Sequence record: MT682711.1
Reading direction: 5' to 3' (one strand)
DNA from: Escherichia phage vB_EcoM_FB
Length of the DNA: 64,000 nucleotides
The notes beneath the pieces were generated by a model. The model had not been told where the DNA came from, did no database searches, and was given only the letters and a program-made list of their open reading frames with translations. Within the stretch, counting starts at the first letter, position 1. Each line of letters begins with the position of its first letter. This document shows, piece by piece, positions 1,984 through 39,638 of the stretch. Both the position numbers and the translations under genes were made by a program.

Positions 1984-3666
1984 TTATTCCAATACAGTAA
2001 ATCTACCGACCTTCTTCATTTGAAGGTGTTGTCCATACGATTGAGGGTCATGGTCCTTATGAGAAATTATAAAGATATTAGAATCTTCCAAAGAATTTAT
2101 AATATTAGATACACCTTTAATACCCTCTGCATCAAAACTTCCATCAAAAACTTCATCTAAAATTAAAGTGCTTATATGTATTCCCGAGACTCGAGAAGCA
2201 ATATCACGCCATGTAAACAATAAAGCCACATCTATTCTAGACTTTTCACCTTCACTAAATGAAGCATAACTAAAGTCTTCACGTCCACGTGATTTAATCG
2301 TCTCGTTGAATTCTTCGTCTAGGGTAAAGACGTAGTCAGCTTCCATAATCTTCAAATAAGAATTTATCTGCTTATTAAAGATAGGAATGTATTTCTTAAT
2401 AATGGAACCTTTAATACCAGTATCCTTCAACATTTCTGTCAGAATTCCACGATGATATTTTTCCATTACTAAGGACGATTTGGTAGAGACGATTTTATCA
2501 AGCTCTGCTTGAAGCGCGGCAATCTCTTCGGCATTACTTACGAACTCAGCAGCTGCTTGGTCGATTAATACTTTAACTTTTTTAGCTTTCTCTACGGCAG
2601 TAATGGCTTGTTGCTTATGAGTAGCTATCTGAGATTTAATAGCCAGCGCTTTATTACGTTGTTCGGTTACTTGGTCCTTAATGAGCTTGAGTTCTTGGTA
2701 CTGCTCATTAATCTTATCCAAAGATTTTTGAAGTTCAAAGTTCTTATCCTTAATTTTAGTAAGGATGTTTCCATGCTCTTCCAATCCTTGCATACACGTA
2801 GGGCAGTGGCCGCCTGTTTCGTATAATTTCACAACCTTAGTAAAGGTTGCCATATCATTCTTGATTGCAAATCCTTTATTGCTCAGGTCACTCATAGAGT
2901 CGCTAGGGTCATCACCAACGATGACATTGAGTAATTCATCAGTCAGGTTTTCTATATTGCCCTTCGCAGTCCTGGCTTCTTTAACTAGCTCGTCATACAT
3001 TACTTGTAGACGTGCTGCGTTCTCACCGGATAATTTACGCTGACGTTCTTCGTTGTCATTATAAATTTTAATCTGTTGGGTAATAGAATCCTGTTTAACG
3101 TCGATTACTTGGATTTGGCTATTAGTCTCACGAATCAAAGATTTGTTCAACTTATCCATATCCGCTAATACAGAAACCTCTAAGAGGTCTTCCACAAGCT
3201 TTCGGCGCGCAGGGGTCGACAAACCCATGAAAGGGGTATACCCTGCTGTACCAAGTACGACAATCTGTTTGAAACTGGTATATGACATTCCGATAAGCTG
3301 TTCAAATTCTGCTTGGAAGTCTTTACTGCTGGCAGATTCATCAAGACGTTCACCGCCACAAGAGATTTCAAAAATATTGGGTTTTTGCCCGCGCTTGATA
3401 TAGTATTCTTTGCCATCATATTCCATCCACAGTTCGACCAAAAGGTCTTTCTTATTACTTGAGTTAATCAACTGCCCTTTCTTAACATCACGAAAAGGCT
3501 TACCGAACAGAGCAAATGTAACGGCTTCAAGGAACGTAGATTTCCCAGCGCCATTTTTACCGGTGACTAAGGTCTTTTGGACCTTATCAAGTTGGATTGT
3601 AATAGATTGCTGACCTACCGACATAATATTTTTATACGTTACTTTCTTTAACTTAAACGTTTTCAT
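1984..3666 (-). CDS. 46: recombination endonuclease subunit gp46 (Rad50/SbcC-like ATPase)
   Basis: 560 aa; Walker A GKNGAGKST near N-terminus, coiled-coil middle, C-terminal signature/Walker B (LILDEVFDG); T4 position and size. Confidence 0.9.
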   Translation of the reverse strand: MKTFKLKKVTYKNIMSVGQQSITIQLDKVQKTLVTGKNGAGKSTFLEAVTFALFGKPFRDVKKGQLINSSNKKDLLVELWMEYDGKEYYIKRGQKPNIFEISCGGERLDESASSKDFQAEFEQLIGMSYTSFKQIVVLGTAGYTPFMGLSTPARRKLVEDLLEVSVLADMDKLNKSLIRETNSQIQVIDVKQDSITQQIKIYNDNEERQRKLSGENAARLQVMYDELVKEARTAKGNIENLTDELLNVIVGDDPSDSMSDLSNKGFAIKNDMATFTKVVKLYETGGHCPTCMQGLEEHGNILTKIKDKNFELQKSLDKINEQYQELKLIKDQVTEQRNKALAIKSQIATHKQQAITAVEKAKKVKVLIDQAAAEFVSNAEEIAALQAELDKIVSTKSSLVMEKYHRGILTEMLKDTGIKGSIIKKYIPIFNKQINSYLKIMEADYVFTLDEEFNETIKSRGREDFSYASFSEGEKSRIDVALLFTWRDIASRVSGIHISTLILDEVFDGSFDAEGIKGVSNIINSLEDSNIFIISHKDHDPQSYGQHLQMKKVGRFTVLE

Positions 3667-3887
3667 GTATTGTTCTCACGAATTGTTTGTTCAGCATATT
3701 CTAGCATTTCTTCGGAAGAAGCAAACACGTCGTCAAGTTCCATGGCCCATGAAACACCTTCAGAATATTCAGAAGTGACATACATAGTTCCGGTATACCA
3801 AGAACCATCCACGTCCCATTCTACATTACCGAACCAGCCATCGCCAATATGAAAATCATGTTTATACATTTTCATCATTATAAGCAT
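3663..3887 (-). CDS. hypothetical protein
   Basis: ATG ORF between 46 and 47, overlaps gene 46 start by 4 nt. Confidence 0.4.
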   Translation of the reverse strand: MLIMMKMYKHDFHIGDGWFGNVEWDVDGSWYTGTMYVTSEYSEGVSWAMELDDVFASSEEMLEYAEQTIRENNT

Positions 3888-4125
3888 CCTTGATGCATGA
3901 TTCAGCCATATGAATTAATGTTTCTGGAGTATCATCTACCATTACATTAAAGCTAAATTCCACAGCCCAATCAGTAGCAACATAAACTTTAATAAGCTCG
4001 TTGGTATCGCGAGTGCTCACGGCTTCAAACCAGAACTTAATGATATTCGTTTGGTTATCGTCATCAATAACGATGCAGTCGTGTTCTAGTTCAAGGCCTG
4101 ATTTTTTGAATTCATCTAAAGTCAT
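3862..4125 (-). CDS. hypothetical protein
   Basis: ATG ORF between 46 and 47, stop overlaps gene 47 end. Confidence 0.4.
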   Translation of the reverse strand: MTLDEFKKSGLELEHDCIVIDDDNQTNIIKFWFEAVSTRDTNELIKVYVATDWAVEFSFNVMVDDTPETLIHMAESCIKDAYNDENV

Positions 4126-5144
4126 CGTGTAACCTCATTATAAAGTTGTGCGGCCATAGTCTTAAGGGCTTTAACATCGTCTTCAGTGTGGCCATCAGGA
4201 AGGGCATCGATATAATCATACATCATATCCAAGAGGGACTTAACTTCATCTTCCTCTTCAGAATCATCGATATCAACACTGTTATCTACCTTAGACACAA
4301 TACGTAAAGAGTGAACAACCTTTTCAAGTTCAGATTCGAACTTGGTAAGCCCGTCATCAATTTTATCGACTATAACACGAACCGCAATATTTGTAAAATC
4401 TTTGTAATCGATAGTCGCATTCGGATAATGAATCTTACGATGCCAACAAGTTTCATTGATGATGAAATCCATTTTATGGGTTTCTGTATCGAAAATCCAG
4501 AAGCCACGAGGGTCGTTCTCATCACCTGCAGTCAGGGTCCATGGCGTACCAATATACTTGACGTTTGCTGCATCAGAAATGGTGTGGAAGTGACCAGACC
4601 ATACTTGCTTATACTTCTTAAGGAAATCAGGTTCTAAACCATGTGATTTCATTCCTTTATAGAAATAGAAACCATTTAATTCCCAGTGGCCAATACAGAA
4701 ATCGGCAGTAGTATTTTTGATATGGTCCATGATATCGGTCGTGTTTTCTTCACACATCCATGGAATCAAATCAATTTCTGTACCATCAAAATTAACCGTA
4801 GTAGGTTTCTCAATAACCTTGATATGGTCGTATTTACCCAGAACTTCAGAAGCAGCGTTCGGAGTCAATGTGTTTTTGTAGTGCATATCATGGTTACCAA
4901 CGACCGTATACATGGTAATGCCGTTGGCTTTAAGCAAATCGGAGATTTCGCGAGCGAATTCCATACACTTATGGGTAATTGCTTTACGAACGTCAAAGAT
5001 ATCACCGTATTGAATCCATACAGTAATGCCATTTGCTTTAGAATAATTAATAGCGTCTTGGATACCTTGACGTTGGATATTTTGTACCCACACATCATCG
5101 GCCTTCACTCCAAGGTGCCAGTCACCTGTGTTTAATATTTTCAT
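4122..5144 (-). CDS. 47: recombination endonuclease subunit gp47 (Mre11/SbcD-like phosphoesterase)
   Basis: MKILNTGDWHLG..GNHD metallophosphatase motifs; start set at ATG 5144 (ATGA overlap with upstream small ORF). Confidence 0.9.
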   Translation of the reverse strand: MKILNTGDWHLGVKADDVWVQNIQRQGIQDAINYSKANGITVWIQYGDIFDVRKAITHKCMEFAREISDLLKANGITMYTVVGNHDMHYKNTLTPNAASEVLGKYDHIKVIEKPTTVNFDGTEIDLIPWMCEENTTDIMDHIKNTTADFCIGHWELNGFYFYKGMKSHGLEPDFLKKYKQVWSGHFHTISDAANVKYIGTPWTLTAGDENDPRGFWIFDTETHKMDFIINETCWHRKIHYPNATIDYKDFTNIAVRVIVDKIDDGLTKFESELEKVVHSLRIVSKVDNSVDIDDSEEEDEVKSLLDMMYDYIDALPDGHTEDDVKALKTMAAQLYNEVTR

Positions 5145-32768: not shown

Positions 32769-33728
32769 TTATTTTTCGAAAGGACGAATTAAATGATGAT
32801 TGTCTTGGAATCGCTTGATGTAATCATTTTCACCCAGAGATTTATACATATTCACTACGGCTTGATAGTTTTCCCACGCGTATTCGCGGAACCATCCGGA
32901 AGTGATAGAGGTGCACACTTTCTCAAGAGCCATATAAAAACTTAACGACGGTGAAATATTGAAGTCGTTAGGAACCTGTGAACGTTCTAGGGCCAGGACA
33001 CAAGTTTCTTCGTATACGCCAGCCAGTTTAATAGCTTCAGGCAAAGCTTCAAACTTCTCACGAGAGGTCATGACTTCAGACCCATCTTTCATATAAAAGG
33101 TATATGCAGGGCGTCCAGCCAATGCCACAGCTTCATGGATAGAGTCGTGGTCCAGAGTATAAATTGTGTCATTAAAGAATGAAGATTTGTTAACGTCCAG
33201 TTTAGGATGAGAATAGCTCAACGTTTCTTTCTGACGTTGCAGCATGATTTCCTGGAGCTCTTCGTTCAGGGTTACACCTTTATTACGAAGGTATTTGATG
33301 TGGGACATAGTTTTCAAGAAGAACGGATTATTCTTCAGGAAACGATGAGAGGTTTTAATAGCCAGACAGATATCAGGAGTAGCCCAATAGAAACCTGTCA
33401 TACGATCTTTCTTAATATGATTTTCAGCATATTTCAGAAGACGATAACTTGAGGTGAAGTCTTCGTCTTGAAGCTCACCAGTGATTTCTCGTACGTTAGT
33501 CAAAGCGCGAACGATATAAGCTTCAAAATAGGTTTCTTTACCGTTGTGCATACATTTGAAAGCCTGGACATCAGGGTTGTCTACGTGTACATGGGCACCA
33601 AACATCTGTGCTTTAAAATTATTCCATGACCCCTGGTCGGCAATGAAATCCCAATCAGAATTTTCGATATACTTACTTTCAATAAGACCTGCGTTATGTA
33701 ATGCACGAGAACCGATAACTAGCATCAT
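32769..33728 (-). CDS. hypothetical protein (319 aa)
   Basis: Long ATG ORF, no motif recognised. Confidence 0.55.
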   Translation of the reverse strand: MMLVIGSRALHNAGLIESKYIENSDWDFIADQGSWNNFKAQMFGAHVHVDNPDVQAFKCMHNGKETYFEAYIVRALTNVREITGELQDEDFTSSYRLLKYAENHIKKDRMTGFYWATPDICLAIKTSHRFLKNNPFFLKTMSHIKYLRNKGVTLNEELQEIMLQRQKETLSYSHPKLDVNKSSFFNDTIYTLDHDSIHEAVALAGRPAYTFYMKDGSEVMTSREKFEALPEAIKLAGVYEETCVLALERSQVPNDFNISPSLSFYMALEKVCTSITSGWFREYAWENYQAVVNMYKSLGENDYIKRFQDNHHLIRPFEK

Positions 33729-33749: not shown

Positions 33750-33986
33750 TTAAATGTCCCAGCGGGCGCTATCATATTCATCCCATAGAGCTTCATGGGA
33801 GTTACAAACGATAGGAGCAATGACTCCGTTAATATCTTCGTTGTAAGGGCAGATAGTACAAAATGCATCTTCGAAACGAACACCGTAATCAGACTTCTTA
33901 TACGCAATGTCAAAAATCTTTTTAAACTTTTCACGAGTAATGGTTTTAGCAACAACTTCAGTACCAATACTTTCGTAATAAATCAT
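33750..33986 (-). CDS. hypothetical protein
   Basis: 78-codon ATG ORF preferred over overlapping low-complexity frame. Confidence 0.4.
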   Translation of the reverse strand: MIYYESIGTEVVAKTITREKFKKIFDIAYKKSDYGVRFEDAFCTICPYNEDINGVIAPIVCNSHEALWDEYDSARWDI

Positions 33987-33996
33987 GGTTATCTCC

Positions 33997-34197
33997 TCAG
34001 ATAGGACCGTAAAGGTATGTCCAACGTTTAACGAAAGAAACTACTTCTTCCAAGGTATCGAAGACCTCTGTAGTGCCTGGAACGCCATCGCCACTGATGG
34101 TTACTTTAATGCCATCTGAAACTTCCTGGAGGTTAATCTCCAGTTGGTTGGCTTTGGCTTCGTTCAGAACTTTGATTAATTCGTTTGCGATAGACAT
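33997..34197 (-). CDS. hypothetical acidic protein
   Basis: 66-codon ATG ORF. Confidence 0.4.
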   Translation of the reverse strand: MSIANELIKVLNEAKANQLEINLQEVSDGIKVTISGDGVPGTTEVFDTLEEVVSFVKRWTYLYGPI

Positions 34198-34261
34198 TTT
34201 TATTCTCCTGTTCTGATAACGTGATTGTCATCAGTTGATAAGAGAATAGTACCACAGTTTT

Positions 34262-34591
34262 CTAGAGTTGTACATCACTTCTGCAATATTCTAAAAATAA
34301 TTTATTGTTGTCAACTGTATCCCAACGTCGCCAAGATGGATTCCAGACCAAAGCGTTGTCACCACAATCATTGAGCTTAAAATGGTCATAGTACATAGCT
34401 ATATGTCTAGTCTCGTCACCAGAGAACCCTAGTATAGGCTCGCCGTGGGTGTGATACATATGATGGTGCATTGAGAGGTCGCATTTATAAAACATTTCAC
34501 GTTTACCGCGAATGAACAAGAATGCTTGTCCGTTCATATAAAATTCTTTATCTGTTTTTAAAAGATATTTGAATACTGAATCTTTGTGCAT
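34262..34591 (-). CDS. hypothetical protein
   Basis: 109-codon ATG ORF, His-rich stretch. Confidence 0.45.
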   Translation of the reverse strand: MHKDSVFKYLLKTDKEFYMNGQAFLFIRGKREMFYKCDLSMHHHMYHTHGEPILGFSGDETRHIAMYYDHFKLNDCGDNALVWNPSWRRWDTVDNNKLFLEYCRSDVQL

Positions 34592-34628: not shown

Positions 34629-34853
34629 TTAACAGCTACTTGGATACCAGATTTTACCATCAGCTTGAGCAACGAAGGTACGACCAGCTTCTTCACCATA
34701 ACAAGAGCTATTCAGCCAATCTTCGAGACGAACTTCGCCGTCATAATCATCTAGCTCAACACCAAAATCCTGAGCAGAAGCCATATCTTTTACTTTCTTA
34801 TACAGTGCAGCCAGTTCAAGAGCAGCTTTTTCTAATTCATTAATATCAGACAT
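34629..34853 (-). CDS. small acidic protein, paralog family member 1 (C-terminal ..WYPSSC)
   Basis: Start at ATG 34853 with AAGGAA upstream; C-terminal W-x-SS-C. Confidence 0.45.
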   Translation of the reverse strand: MSDINELEKAALELAALYKKVKDMASAQDFGVELDDYDGEVRLEDWLNSSCYGEEAGRTFVAQADGKIWYPSSC

Positions 34854-34863
34854 TTTTATTTCC

Positions 34864-35076
34864 TTAGCAAGACATAGAAGAAGTAAACCAGAAACCATCG
34901 CCATCTGGGATACCGTAATCATCACGGACCCATTCGTAATCATCATATTCCGGATTCTTTGGAGAAATGTATTGTCCACGACCGGAAACATGGAACTCTT
35001 CACCTGTTTCGTCAGCCACGGACTGGCCTTTACGTACTAATTCGTGGATTTGTTTTTCAATTTCATCAATAGTCAT
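34864..35076 (-). CDS. small acidic protein, paralog family member 2 (C-terminal ..WFTSSMSC)
   Basis: 70 aa; shares C-terminal motif with three neighbours. Confidence 0.45.
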   Translation of the reverse strand: MTIDEIEKQIHELVRKGQSVADETGEEFHVSGRGQYISPKNPEYDDYEWVRDDYGIPDGDGFWFTSSMSC

Positions 35077-35085
35077 TTTATTACC

Positions 35086-35367
35086 TTAACATTCAGAAGA
35101 AGAGGACACCCATCCACCTTTTTCAAGGTCTGTGGTGTAGTCGTGGGTGTTAACGATAGCGTATTGAGGCTCACCGTATTCTTCCCAGTGGGCAAGGTCA
35201 GCTTTCAAGGCGCCAGGAGAATAATAGTCACCGCCCATACCGCGAGCAGGGTATATATTAAAATGAGTCTCATATTTGTTTGCAATTTCCTCGGCGTGGC
35301 GAATAGCCTTATGGATGTCATTTACTGCGTTGGCCAGTTCTTTATTTTTACTGTAATCATTCATCAT
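35086..35367 (-). CDS. small acidic protein, paralog family member 3 (C-terminal ..WVSSSSEC)
   Basis: 93 aa; shared C-terminal motif. Confidence 0.45.
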   Translation of the reverse strand: MMNDYSKNKELANAVNDIHKAIRHAEEIANKYETHFNIYPARGMGGDYYSPGALKADLAHWEEYGEPQYAIVNTHDYTTDLEKGGWVSSSSEC

Positions 35368-35376
35368 AACGTTTCC

Positions 35377-35667
35377 TTAGCACAATGCCGAAGAGGAGAC
35401 CCAAGCACCAACTGTAACGACGCCGTTTTCAACTTCACCGCCGTTGTTTTCAATTTCATCTTTAAACCACTGGGAGCATTCATAGCCGATAGGGTAATAT
35501 GTACGACCTGAACCATAATCGCCCGTACCGAATTGAATACCATACTTATCAGCAATTACTTCACATTCATGTTCGATGGTATCCACTTTATTCAGAAGAG
35601 CATAGATAGCTTTTTCTGCAGATTTCTCGTCGTTGTGTTCTGGGATTTCAATTTCAATTTTATTCAT
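35377..35667 (-). CDS. small acidic protein, paralog family member 4 (C-terminal ..WVSSSALC)
   Basis: 96 aa; shared C-terminal motif. Confidence 0.45.
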   Translation of the reverse strand: MNKIEIEIPEHNDEKSAEKAIYALLNKVDTIEHECEVIADKYGIQFGTGDYGSGRTYYPIGYECSQWFKDEIENNGGEVENGVVTVGAWVSSSALC

Positions 35668-36017
35668 GATTTACATTCCTTAATAAAGGTTTCAAGGTCA
35701 TTACATTTGGTTTGTTTTACATACTCATTATACTTAGCCATAGCTAAAGCATAACTCTTTTTACGTGGCTTGTTTAATTTATTAGTTTGGACAACATCAA
35801 AGACTAATGGGATAAAGTATCCTACTAAAGATGGAACCCAAATCCACGCAAGACTCATATCTTCAAACGGATGACGAGGCATACCATTAATAATCCCGCC
35901 AACAAGGAATCCTATTATTCCTGCAATCATACTAGTAGCAATGCCGAGGAATAAGGAAATAGAGATATCGTAATCTTCTAATGCATAACCTGGATCGGTT
36001 TTACTAGGCTTATACAT
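35664..36017 (-). CDS. membrane protein
   Basis: Two hydrophobic helices; start at ATG 36017 with AAAGAGG upstream; ends ..FIKECKS. Confidence 0.45.
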   Translation of the reverse strand: MYKPSKTDPGYALEDYDISISLFLGIATSMIAGIIGFLVGGIINGMPRHPFEDMSLAWIWVPSLVGYFIPLVFDVVQTNKLNKPRKKSYALAMAKYNEYVKQTKCNDLETFIKECKS

Positions 36018-36546
36018 TTTGAACCTCTTTAGCATATTCGCGGCATTCTTTAATAAAACGATTAAGCTTGCGTTGCTGTTTACGACTTTCTAACGTGTAT
36101 TCGTCGGCCAAAACAATAAGCTCGTCTTTATCGTAATTTTTAATATCAGAGTAAGATGGACGACGGTCGACCATACCAAAATGGTCACCATTTTCTAACA
36201 TCAAATAACATACTAAATGATAATCATCATCTGCATTAGTAAGCTGCTTATAATCACTCGGTTCGTTTAAAGCATATACCGAATATCTTACTCCGGCGAA
36301 TTCCACTCGTTGAATAGCCAGATTTACGTCAATAATTTCTAAAGCTTCTGCAAAAGAAAGGTCTTCAGCTAAAGCAAAGATAAAGGGTAATTTAGTAGTA
36401 TAGCCACGGTTATTTGTTCTGCTTAAGAAATCGTTAGAATAACCTAGGTCCTGGCGAATTCTATAAAGAACCGCATTAGTTTCATGGGAAAGACCACTAT
36501 GCTTAAACCAATCAACATTTGATATCAGGTCATCATATAAACCCAT
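36010..36546 (-). CDS. hypothetical protein
   Basis: Start at ATG 36546 with GGAGGAGAGGAG upstream; ends ..FIKECREYAKEVQNV. Confidence 0.5.
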   Translation of the reverse strand: MGLYDDLISNVDWFKHSGLSHETNAVLYRIRQDLGYSNDFLSRTNNRGYTTKLPFIFALAEDLSFAEALEIIDVNLAIQRVEFAGVRYSVYALNEPSDYKQLTNADDDYHLVCYLMLENGDHFGMVDRRPSYSDIKNYDKDELIVLADEYTLESRKQQRKLNRFIKECREYAKEVQNV

Positions 36547-37231: not shown

Positions 37232-37261
37232 ATTATACCCTGTCCTCTGAGGTTTGTAAAC
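37232..37261 (-). promoter_or_regulatory. sigma70-type early promoter candidate
   Basis: Minus strand GTTTACA, 17 nt, TATAAT; inverted repeat GAGGACAG/CTGTCCTC flanks the -10. Confidence 0.55.
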
Positions 37262-38778: not shown

Positions 38779-38854
38779 TGGTCGAGGCAGTAGGGATCGA
38801 ACCTACGACCTAGGACTTAGAAGGTCCTTGCTCTTCCTTCTGAGCTATGCCCCG
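38779..38854 (-). tRNA. tRNA-Arg (anticodon UCU), CCA encoded
   Basis: 76 nt cloverleaf folded by hand: 7-bp acceptor with one G-U, GG in D-loop, anticodon loop CUUCUAA, T-loop TTCGATC. Confidence 0.8.
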
Positions 38855-39567: not shown

Positions 39568-39638
39568 TGGCCCTGGGTGGAATCGAACCACCATCCAGCG
39601 ATTATGAGTCGCTCGCTTGACCGTCCAGCTACAGGGCC
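39568..39638 (-). tRNA. tRNA with CAU anticodon (Met or Ile2 type), CCA not encoded
   Basis: 71 nt: perfect 7-bp acceptor GGCCCTG/CAGGGCC, anticodon loop CTCATAA, T-arm GGTGG-TTCGATT-CCACC. Confidence 0.7.

Follow-up and report, generated by a model that had tools for sequence, protein, structure and literature searches.

The window analyzed here is a stretch of 64,000 nucleotides from Escherichia phage vB_EcoM_FB (MT682711.1), about 90% identical to Dhakavirus genomes, which belong to T4-like coliphages (Bp7, JS98, IME08, WG01, MX01). Between positions 34629 and 35667 it carries four consecutive small genes on the minus strand, which we name after the lengths of their products. The first paralog, p96 (35377-35667, minus strand, 96 aa), contains the glycine-rich loop GDYGSGRTYYP and ends in ...GAWVSSSALC, with WVSSSALC as its tail; it is the ortholog of RB69 ORF139c+138c, a gene split by a frameshift. 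The second, p93 (35086-35367, minus strand, 93 aa), is the ortholog of RB69 ORF137c and carries the loop ARGMGGDYYSPG and the tail WVSSSSEC (end ...GGWVSSSSEC). In the third, p70 (34864-35076, minus strand, 70 aa), the loop is shortened to GRGQYISP and the tail reads WFTSSMSC (end ...GFWFTSSMSC). The fourth and most divergent paralog, p74 (34629-34853, minus strand, 74 aa), has no glycine-rich loop and ends in ...KIWYPSSC; it holds two tail modules, WLNSSC internally and WYPSSC at the terminus. Isoelectric points are 4.35 for p96, 5.02 for p93, 4.26 for p70 and 4.16 for p74, with net charges of -7 to -11. A first-pass annotation had described four small acidic minus-strand genes with W-SS-C ends at this locus, and the ORFs, with pI 4.2-5.0, lie exactly where it placed them. 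All four end in W-x(1-2)-S-S-x(0-2)-C, and among the 994 ORFs of 30 aa or more in the six frames of the window no other has a W..S..C ending. Nor did any further ORF in the 64 kb match a profile built from the four proteins.

Three of the four junctions share the form Cys-TAA-GG(A/T)AA...ATG and read TGC TAA GGAAACGTT ATG, TGT TAA GGTAATAAA ATG and TGC TAA GGAAATAAAA ATG. The junction between p74 and the next gene deviates, with TAATAG followed by the Shine-Dalgarno sequence GAAGGAGG 41 nt further on. The earlier description of a stop codon, Shine-Dalgarno sequence and ATG at every junction is thus correct for three junctions and does not extend to that of p74.

The array had also been read as a tandem duplication with divergence, and full-length profile matches of all four proteins bear this out. 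Matches to phrog_899 (PHROG 899, annotated as function unknown) cover essentially the entire sequences, from residues 1-2 to 70-96, with E values of 1.7e-21 for p96, 1.8e-20 for p93, 1.2e-13 for p70 and 4.3e-10 for p74. A family HMM of 149 sequences, comprising 145 representatives from other phages and the four window proteins themselves, gave E values of 7.5e-23 (p93), 3.3e-21 (p96) and 3.2e-15 (p70), and only 0.01 for p74. BLASTP aligned 78-97 residues of the pairs p96/p93 and p93/p70 at E of about 1e-5. Similarity extends over the whole proteins rather than just the last codons and the ribosome-binding site, an outcome opposite to the one named as telling against paralogy. The motif serines are encoded by TCN codons in p96, p93 and p70 and by AGT AGC in p74, and this use of both serine codon families indicates that the motif is conserved at the protein level. 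Sequence comparison therefore confirms the four genes as true paralogs that diverged after duplication. The duplications are old and not recent, since DNA identity among the four copies is 41-51% and other T4-like genera, among them Mosigvirus, Marfavirus and Karamvirus-like ones, share the order p96 - p93 - (65-aa copy) - p70/p74.

The 65-aa gene in this order, of the RB69 ORF136c type, is a fifth copy located between p93 and p70 in most Dhakaviruses and absent from the window. Phage ESCO10 has this gene flanked by nearly identical 3' ends of about 30 nt (TGGGTGTCCTC.TCTT..GAATGTTAAGG), and the p93-p70 junction of the window is the exact product of recombination between those ends. From this comparison, the tail, stop codon and Shine-Dalgarno sequence together behave as a recombination repeat of roughly 30 nt, through which the fifth copy was deleted cleanly in the window. 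The conservation of junctions is real, but it serves the gain and loss of copies and is not the source of the protein similarity.

The small proteins belong to a large family, with at least 233 clusters (50% identity) at E <=1e-3 among 1.84 billion representatives. The 150 best representatives listed are all 64-155 aa long, and no fusion of the small protein with the enzyme described below was found among them. The family consensus is M..kkeA.k.I.eLv..A..li.EAE.IADE.G..FsFs.aYGMGGTYyPkg....dW..sd....eGGW.SSS.sC, and 95% of the members have a pI below 5.5. The glycine-rich loop, Y-G-x-G-G-x-Y-x-P, follows an F-x-F strand and is typical of the family, not universal: p96 (DYGSGRTYYP) and p93 (ARGMGGDYYSP) have it, p70 has a shortened form and p74 none, and loop-less members retain the helix at the N-terminus, the F-x-F strand and the tail. 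Across all subtypes, loop-less members included, the sole positions kept are Trp, Ser-Ser and Cys. The spacing Trp-x6-Cys occurs in 145 of 149 family sequences, and p74 is an outlier in having a shorter one (W-x4-C) in addition to missing the loop. Extra internal W-x-S-S-x-C modules were found in 13 of 149 members, p74 among them. The first-pass annotation had left the terminal cysteine unexplained and proposed looking for it in related phages; it is conserved there and far beyond, being the exact end of 138 of 148 representatives, while in six more the Cys is followed by 1-4 further residues.

No Pfam, NCBIfam or PADLOC model matched the small proteins, even when 67 diverse members were queried. 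The alignment of the diverse family had no stretch conserved enough for a search of loci, and the codon pattern of YGMGGTY was used instead. In viral contigs this pattern identified 73 stretches, leading to 43 new loci with family genes. The same pattern had 103 matches in 185,579 bacterial and archaeal species genomes, none of them a family member, in a search to which only members with the exact motif are visible. The family is apparently restricted to phages, with no chromosomal or prophage reservoir found in these scans.

An AlphaFold model of p96, computed from a mixed alignment of the four proteins and their relatives, has a pLDDT of 91 and a pTM of 0.77. It consists of a long helix (residues 14-42), a small sheet, a short helix (66-74), three further strands and a terminal turn. 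This confidently predicted model had no fold match in the PDB. Between members the bodies diverge strongly, in contrast to the invariant tail. In the AlphaFold model this tail forms a packed short helix and not a free peptide, and confidence for the last six residues, about 71, is below that of the body. This packing and the variation of the Ser-to-Cys spacing from 0 to 2 residues count against the acceptor role of the tail proposed below.

Downstream of the array, on the same strand and about 0.9 kb away, lies a gene (32769-33728, minus strand) for a 319-aa protein with the Pfam domains DUF7277 and DUF7275 and a predicted Pol-beta-type nucleotidyltransferase (NTase) fold. Five residues, G6, S7, D25, D27 and E69 (GS...DxD...E), are invariant in 42 diverse enzyme sequences. 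In the enzyme model (pLDDT 92, pTM 0.84) this signature is placed on strand 2-5/helix 6-12, strand 26-31 and strand 64-73, the strand-helix-strand-strand elements expected of a Pol-beta-type NTase core, which is the basis for this assignment. The closest solved folds are the toxins MenT1, MenT3 and MenT4 and ANT(2''), and superposition on them covers only about 144 of the 319 residues. The all-helical C-terminal domain (DUF7275) has no fold counterpart; it is very strongly conserved and contains the motifs SHRYKKNSPHF, YDHDSIHEA, GVYEExCVLALERSQIP and KVCTSITSGWFREYAWENY. Invariant basic residues of the enzyme are K125, R129, K132, K139, R165, K225, R249 and R281. Among the C-terminal motifs of DUF1814 proteins, motif III is tRNA-NTase-like and motif IV is unique to DUF1814 (PMC10435456); in the phage enzyme an invariant helix, K125-x-S127-H128-R129, follows the NTase core, and no motif IV was identified. 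The Pfam AbiEii/DUF1814 model did not match the enzyme at E values up to 10, DUF7277 and DUF7275 being the only domains reported, and PADLOC gave no match. The model thus predicts an NTase with MenT-like architecture that, since the AbiEii/DUF1814 model does not match, is by sequence not a DUF1814 member. The enzyme is not basic overall, its median pI being about 6, so that simple charge complementarity with the acidic proteins was rejected, a point against a partnership of the two.

Among 50,697 deposited phage genomes, at least 734 encode the enzyme. It is carried by T4-like phages that infect Escherichia, Klebsiella, Enterobacter, Aeromonas and Acinetobacter, and it also occurs in phages of Pseudomonas, Xanthomonas and Stenotrophomonas, in jumbo phages and in many metagenomic viruses. 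Databases nearly always name it 'hypothetical protein', and the single listed exception looks mis-transferred. Elsewhere one annotator used 'putative nucleotidyltransferase' and one pipeline 'DefenseFinder protein'.

Linkage of the array to this enzyme is not peculiar to the window. When neighbors of the family genes in viral loci were clustered, a homolog of the enzyme (about 300 aa) was present in 30 loci, and the next most widespread cluster in 8; no conserved protease, exporter or cyclase gene was found near the family loci. With an HMM of the enzyme, 33 of the 43 pattern-found loci proved to encode a homolog downstream in the same orientation, and in the remaining 10 the sequence ends less than 1 kb downstream of the family genes. 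Wherever enough downstream sequence was available, a DUF7277-DUF7275 protein was therefore encoded there on the same strand (33/33). Conversely, the family HMM detected genes on the same strand upstream of the enzyme in 70 of 80 viral loci selected by the latter, and on the opposite strand in no case. Five of the 10 HMM-negative loci hold divergent tail-bearing ORFs, bringing the count to 75 of 80, with 1-6 copies per locus. The contigs that bear the enzyme-selected loci measure 13 kb to 371 kb, with enzyme identities from 97% down to 40%, a breadth which argues that the linkage is not an accident of T4-like synteny. The coupling of array and enzyme is near-obligate and same-strand across very different phages. 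Sequence scans point to a conserved module in which one enzyme follows 1-6 small acidic proteins, found in phage sequences only. The enzyme lacks an accompanying gene of the small family in about 5 of the 80 loci, as do more distant homologs from Gordonia, Streptomyces and Vibrio phages, which counts against a role of the small proteins as its partners or acceptors. A linkage to tRNA genes, suggested by a Gordonia phage and by the T4-type context, turned out not to be general, with 8 of 55 loci having tRNA genes within 5 kb.

The array occupies an accessory region with e.6/e.5/e.4-like genes on one side and e.2 on the other. T4 has e.3 next to e.2 and lacks a block corresponding to the array module at that locus. 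Three small minus-strand ORFs lie between array and enzyme in the window, encoding 109 aa (34262-34591), 66 aa (33997-34197) and 78 aa (33750-33986), the last an ortholog of RB69 ORF135c. Since the gap between array and enzyme in other phages is as small as 12-100 bp, these ORFs (33750-34591) are regarded from genome comparison as lineage-specific fillers outside the conserved core. Such an interruption by three unrelated ORFs (~0.9 kb) is a point against partnership in this phage. A candidate early sigma-70-type promoter (37232-37260, minus strand; TTTACA-17-TATAAT, 11/12) was located upstream of the e.6-like gene by a consensus scan in which promoter-like sites were not enriched over shuffles. 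No convincing terminator was found between this candidate and the nucleotidyltransferase gene. Given the strong sigma-70-like site and the absence of a good terminator before the enzyme gene, the e.6, e.5 and e.4 genes, the array and the enzyme probably share a single transcript.

From this conserved gene order, the small proteins are very probably functional partners of the downstream NTase. Granting the partnership, a role as covalent acceptors would be the leading candidate, though still tentative, a non-covalent regulator or inhibitor would be a serious contender, and adaptor or other functions would be a lesser possibility. In the version to which we commit, itself offered tentatively, each small protein would dock on the NTase via its folded body, formed by the long N-terminal helix and the small beta-sheet, and would offer its invariant tail to the catalytic center. 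The tail would then be the acceptor of a nucleotidyl (or phosphoryl) group at a Ser-OH or Cys-SH, and the paralogs would be alternative protein substrates with one common 'handle'. This version is slightly favored on several grounds. Nucleophiles (Ser-Ser, Cys) beside a Trp are the sole residues that never vary in the family; the tail is located at the less confidently modeled C-terminus and the tail module can be repeated within one protein; several small genes precede one enzyme; and the small family never occurs without the enzyme, which is sometimes found alone.

A precedent for the acceptor mechanism comes from the HEPN/MNT (type VII) toxin-antitoxin systems, in which an NTase-fold enzyme is likewise encoded beside a small protein and this protein is covalently nucleotidylylated: MntA, an NTase, adenylylates its partner HepT (PMC7641770). 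The phage partner differs in being a 70-96 aa alpha/beta protein which is not HEPN and has no Pfam, NCBIfam or fold match. Its candidate acceptor is a C-terminal Ser-Ser/Cys tail, whereas that of HepT is a Tyr beside the RNase active site. The enzymes differ as well, MntA being a minimal NTase and the phage protein having 319 aa and an extra domain.

Gene clusters for ribosomally synthesized and post-translationally modified peptides (RiPPs) also combine arrays of several precursor genes with a single modifying enzyme. The phage module resembles them in its tandem divergent small genes ahead of one enzyme and in a shared, sometimes repeated, C-terminal element with Ser and Cys. In contrast to RiPPs, the body of the phage proteins is predicted to be a stable folded domain and not a leader peptide, and conserved and variable parts are reversed. 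An invariant tail on a variable body is the reverse of the usual leader/core logic of modified peptides, an observation which speaks against the tail as an acceptor.

Regulator and adaptor roles are close rivals of the acceptor proposal, and the regulator is almost as likely. By analogy to MenA, the small acidic proteins may form a non-covalent complex with the NTase that inactivates or retunes it, for instance by obstructing the cleft or by causing the serine of the GS motif to become auto-phosphorylated. This would let the phage time the action of an enzyme that modifies host RNA such as tRNA 3' ends. MenA1 (68 aa) is the cognate antitoxin of MenAT1; it binds and controls MenT1, and through its N-terminal helix it makes MenT1 auto-phosphorylate a residue of the active site (PMC10435456, PMC11375011). 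The phage module shares with MenAT1 the two-gene logic of a short protein and a Pol-beta-type NTase, with motifs I and II invariant here. The gene order of small protein followed by NTase, often 12-100 bp apart, and the MenT toxins as three of the four best fold matches fit this rival, as does the combination of acidic small proteins with an enzyme rich in invariant Lys and Arg. However, it is unusual for a single enzyme to have 2-6 different 'antitoxins', it is not obvious why a lytic phage should neutralize its own enzyme, and the enzyme stands alone in some loci (about 5/80). The absolute conservation of Ser-Ser and the terminal Cys suggests chemistry over mere binding. The missing match to the AbiEii/DUF1814 model and the few loci with tRNA genes within 5 kb (only 8/55) also weigh against it, and taken by itself we consider this function less likely than not.

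Other differences from MenAT1 and DUF1814 proteins are that the phage enzyme does not match their sequence profile, that only about 144 of its 319 residues superpose and that its DUF7275 domain has no counterpart. The fold of the phage small proteins has no solved match, a W-SS-C tail has not been described for MenA proteins, and several paralogs are present per enzyme. MenAT systems are chromosomal, whereas the phage module was found in many kinds of phages, with no instance among the 185,579 species genomes scanned.

A second possibility is that the small proteins are specificity adaptors, whose tail handle plugs into the NTase while the variable bodies bind different host targets, such as defense proteins, and bring them to it, in which case the number of paralogs would mirror the target range. 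Strong divergence of the bodies against an invariant tail fits this role. Copy numbers of 1 to 6 across phages, with gain and loss by recombination at tail repeats, and the location of the module in an accessory region missing from T4 at this locus, where e.2 and e.3 are adjacent, are also consistent with such a role. Yet the bodies keep one compact fold with the conserved motifs EAExIADE and YGMGGTYYP, not diverse binding surfaces, and adaptors seem unlikely and less probable than a regulator.

The first-pass annotation had suggested host-interference or DNA-mimic proteins, which would act independently of the neighboring enzyme. Ocr, ArdA and Arn are similarly small, acidic, early-expressed phage proteins, and the pI of 4.2-5.0 and net charge of -7 to -11 in the array, the pI below 5.5 in 95% of the family and the position in an accessory region of early type, preceded by a sigma-70-like promoter, would suit such a function. 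But in neither fold nor sequence do the small proteins resemble Ocr, ArdA and Arn, whose genes are not obligately linked to that of an enzyme, and PADLOC and other family models did not match them. An NTase was present wherever the sequence permitted a check (33/33). The suggestion had acidity as its only support, and the family is tied to an NTase gene about 0.9 kb away, outside the stretch that had been annotated; free-standing proteins of this type now seem improbable. Finally, that the likeness of the four lies only in their junctions (tail codons, stop codon and Shine-Dalgarno sequence), or that the ORFs are not genes, is an artefact reading with next to no probability, which the near identity of the ~30-nt 3' ends of p93-type and 65-aa-type genes and the clean deletion they mediated might suggest but which is refuted by profile matches spanning the full proteins, a shared fold predicted with confidence, motif serines drawn from both codon families and at least 233 diverse clusters with the same architecture in unrelated genomic junction contexts.

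The pairing of an NTase with a small partner is already known from MenAT and HEPN/MNT. The phage module differs from both: its partner family matches no solved structure, its enzyme has an additional domain, several paralogs form an array, and in our scans its distribution is confined to phages. We found no paper on RB69ORF137c, phrog_899, DUF7275/7277, the YGMGG motif or phage MenT-like enzymes, and every gene of the module is annotated 'hypothetical'.

The nearest solved relatives of the enzyme are bacterial toxins that halt translation by extending tRNA ends. The phage version could be a host-takeover weapon with built-in control, a counter-defense or a new protein-nucleotidylation chemistry. 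The conserved repeat of tail, stop codon and Shine-Dalgarno sequence offers a way in which phages gain or drop paralogs, and the terminal cysteine, unexplained before, has become a testable hypothesis. It is possible, though on balance doubtful, that the module represents a new phage protein-modification system, in which a MenT-like NTase covalently nucleotidylylates or phosphorylates the invariant C-terminal W-x-S-S-x-x-Cys handle on a set of small acidic proteins whose fold has not been seen before. If this is true, protein-nucleotide conjugates would act on the host in early infection, and the number of paralogs and of handle repeats would tune the output.

Most Dhakaviruses carry a fifth, 65-aa paralog ending in ...WVSSSYEC between p93 and p70, two of the four small acidic paralogs of the array (in phage ESCO10, OM386655.1, at 4560-4810 of the comparison locus). 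The gene for this paralog is bordered on both sides by near-identical repeats of about 30 nt comprising tail, stop codon and Shine-Dalgarno sequence, and it is absent from the p93/p70 junction of the window (35076-35086). This junction is the exact product expected from recombination between the flanking repeats. The product names deposited for the array region of ESCO10 (helicase, head outer capsid protein, UvsY, baseplate subunits and others) are clearly shifted relative to the genes, and the small paralogs are labeled there as "DNA helicase", "group I intron endonuclease", "helicase" and "inhibitor of prohead protease".

The ortholog of p96, another of the four paralogs, is divided by a frameshift in the reference genome of RB69, giving ORFs of 71 and 33 aa (ORF139c and ORF138c; 3676-3982 of the RB69 locus), while an unbroken 101-aa version of this ortholog is found in Shigella phage phi25-307. 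The three-gene array of Acinetobacter phage Lazarus includes orf068 (1200-1376 of that locus), which ends in ...VWHNSNWSNSES with no cysteine, a rare natural loss of the terminal Cys that is otherwise invariant in the family.

The e.3/e.4/e.5/ORF133c-type proteins encoded upstream of the array, which are membrane proteins or of unknown nature, all share a FIKEC(R/K)-like C-terminus (window 35664-35700 and 36010-36060; also in RB69). Embedded in the codons of this motif, ATT AAG GAA TGT, is the Shine-Dalgarno sequence that serves the following gene. Unlike the W-SS-C tail of the small paralogs, these endings look like true junction conservation.

The minus strand of the window also carries two phage tRNA genes, Arg-TCT (38779-38854) and Met-CAT (39568-39638), 3-4 kb upstream of the array. 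Only eight of 55 loci have tRNA genes close to the gene for the nucleotidyltransferase encoded downstream of the array; in one T4-like contig (3615-4567 of its locus), seven tRNA genes rather than small-protein genes precede it.

Remote homologs of this enzyme, 250-263 aa in length, occur in Gordonia, Streptomyces and Vibrio phages, with no W-SS-C gene upstream of the homolog in these three loci. Common to them is a gene of about 100-120 aa downstream of the homolog, with a product ending in ...EV.P..KTIT.Y (3100-3393, 3130-3468 and 3108-3473 of the respective loci). This protein may be a different partner in the Gordonia/Streptomyces/Vibrio branch.
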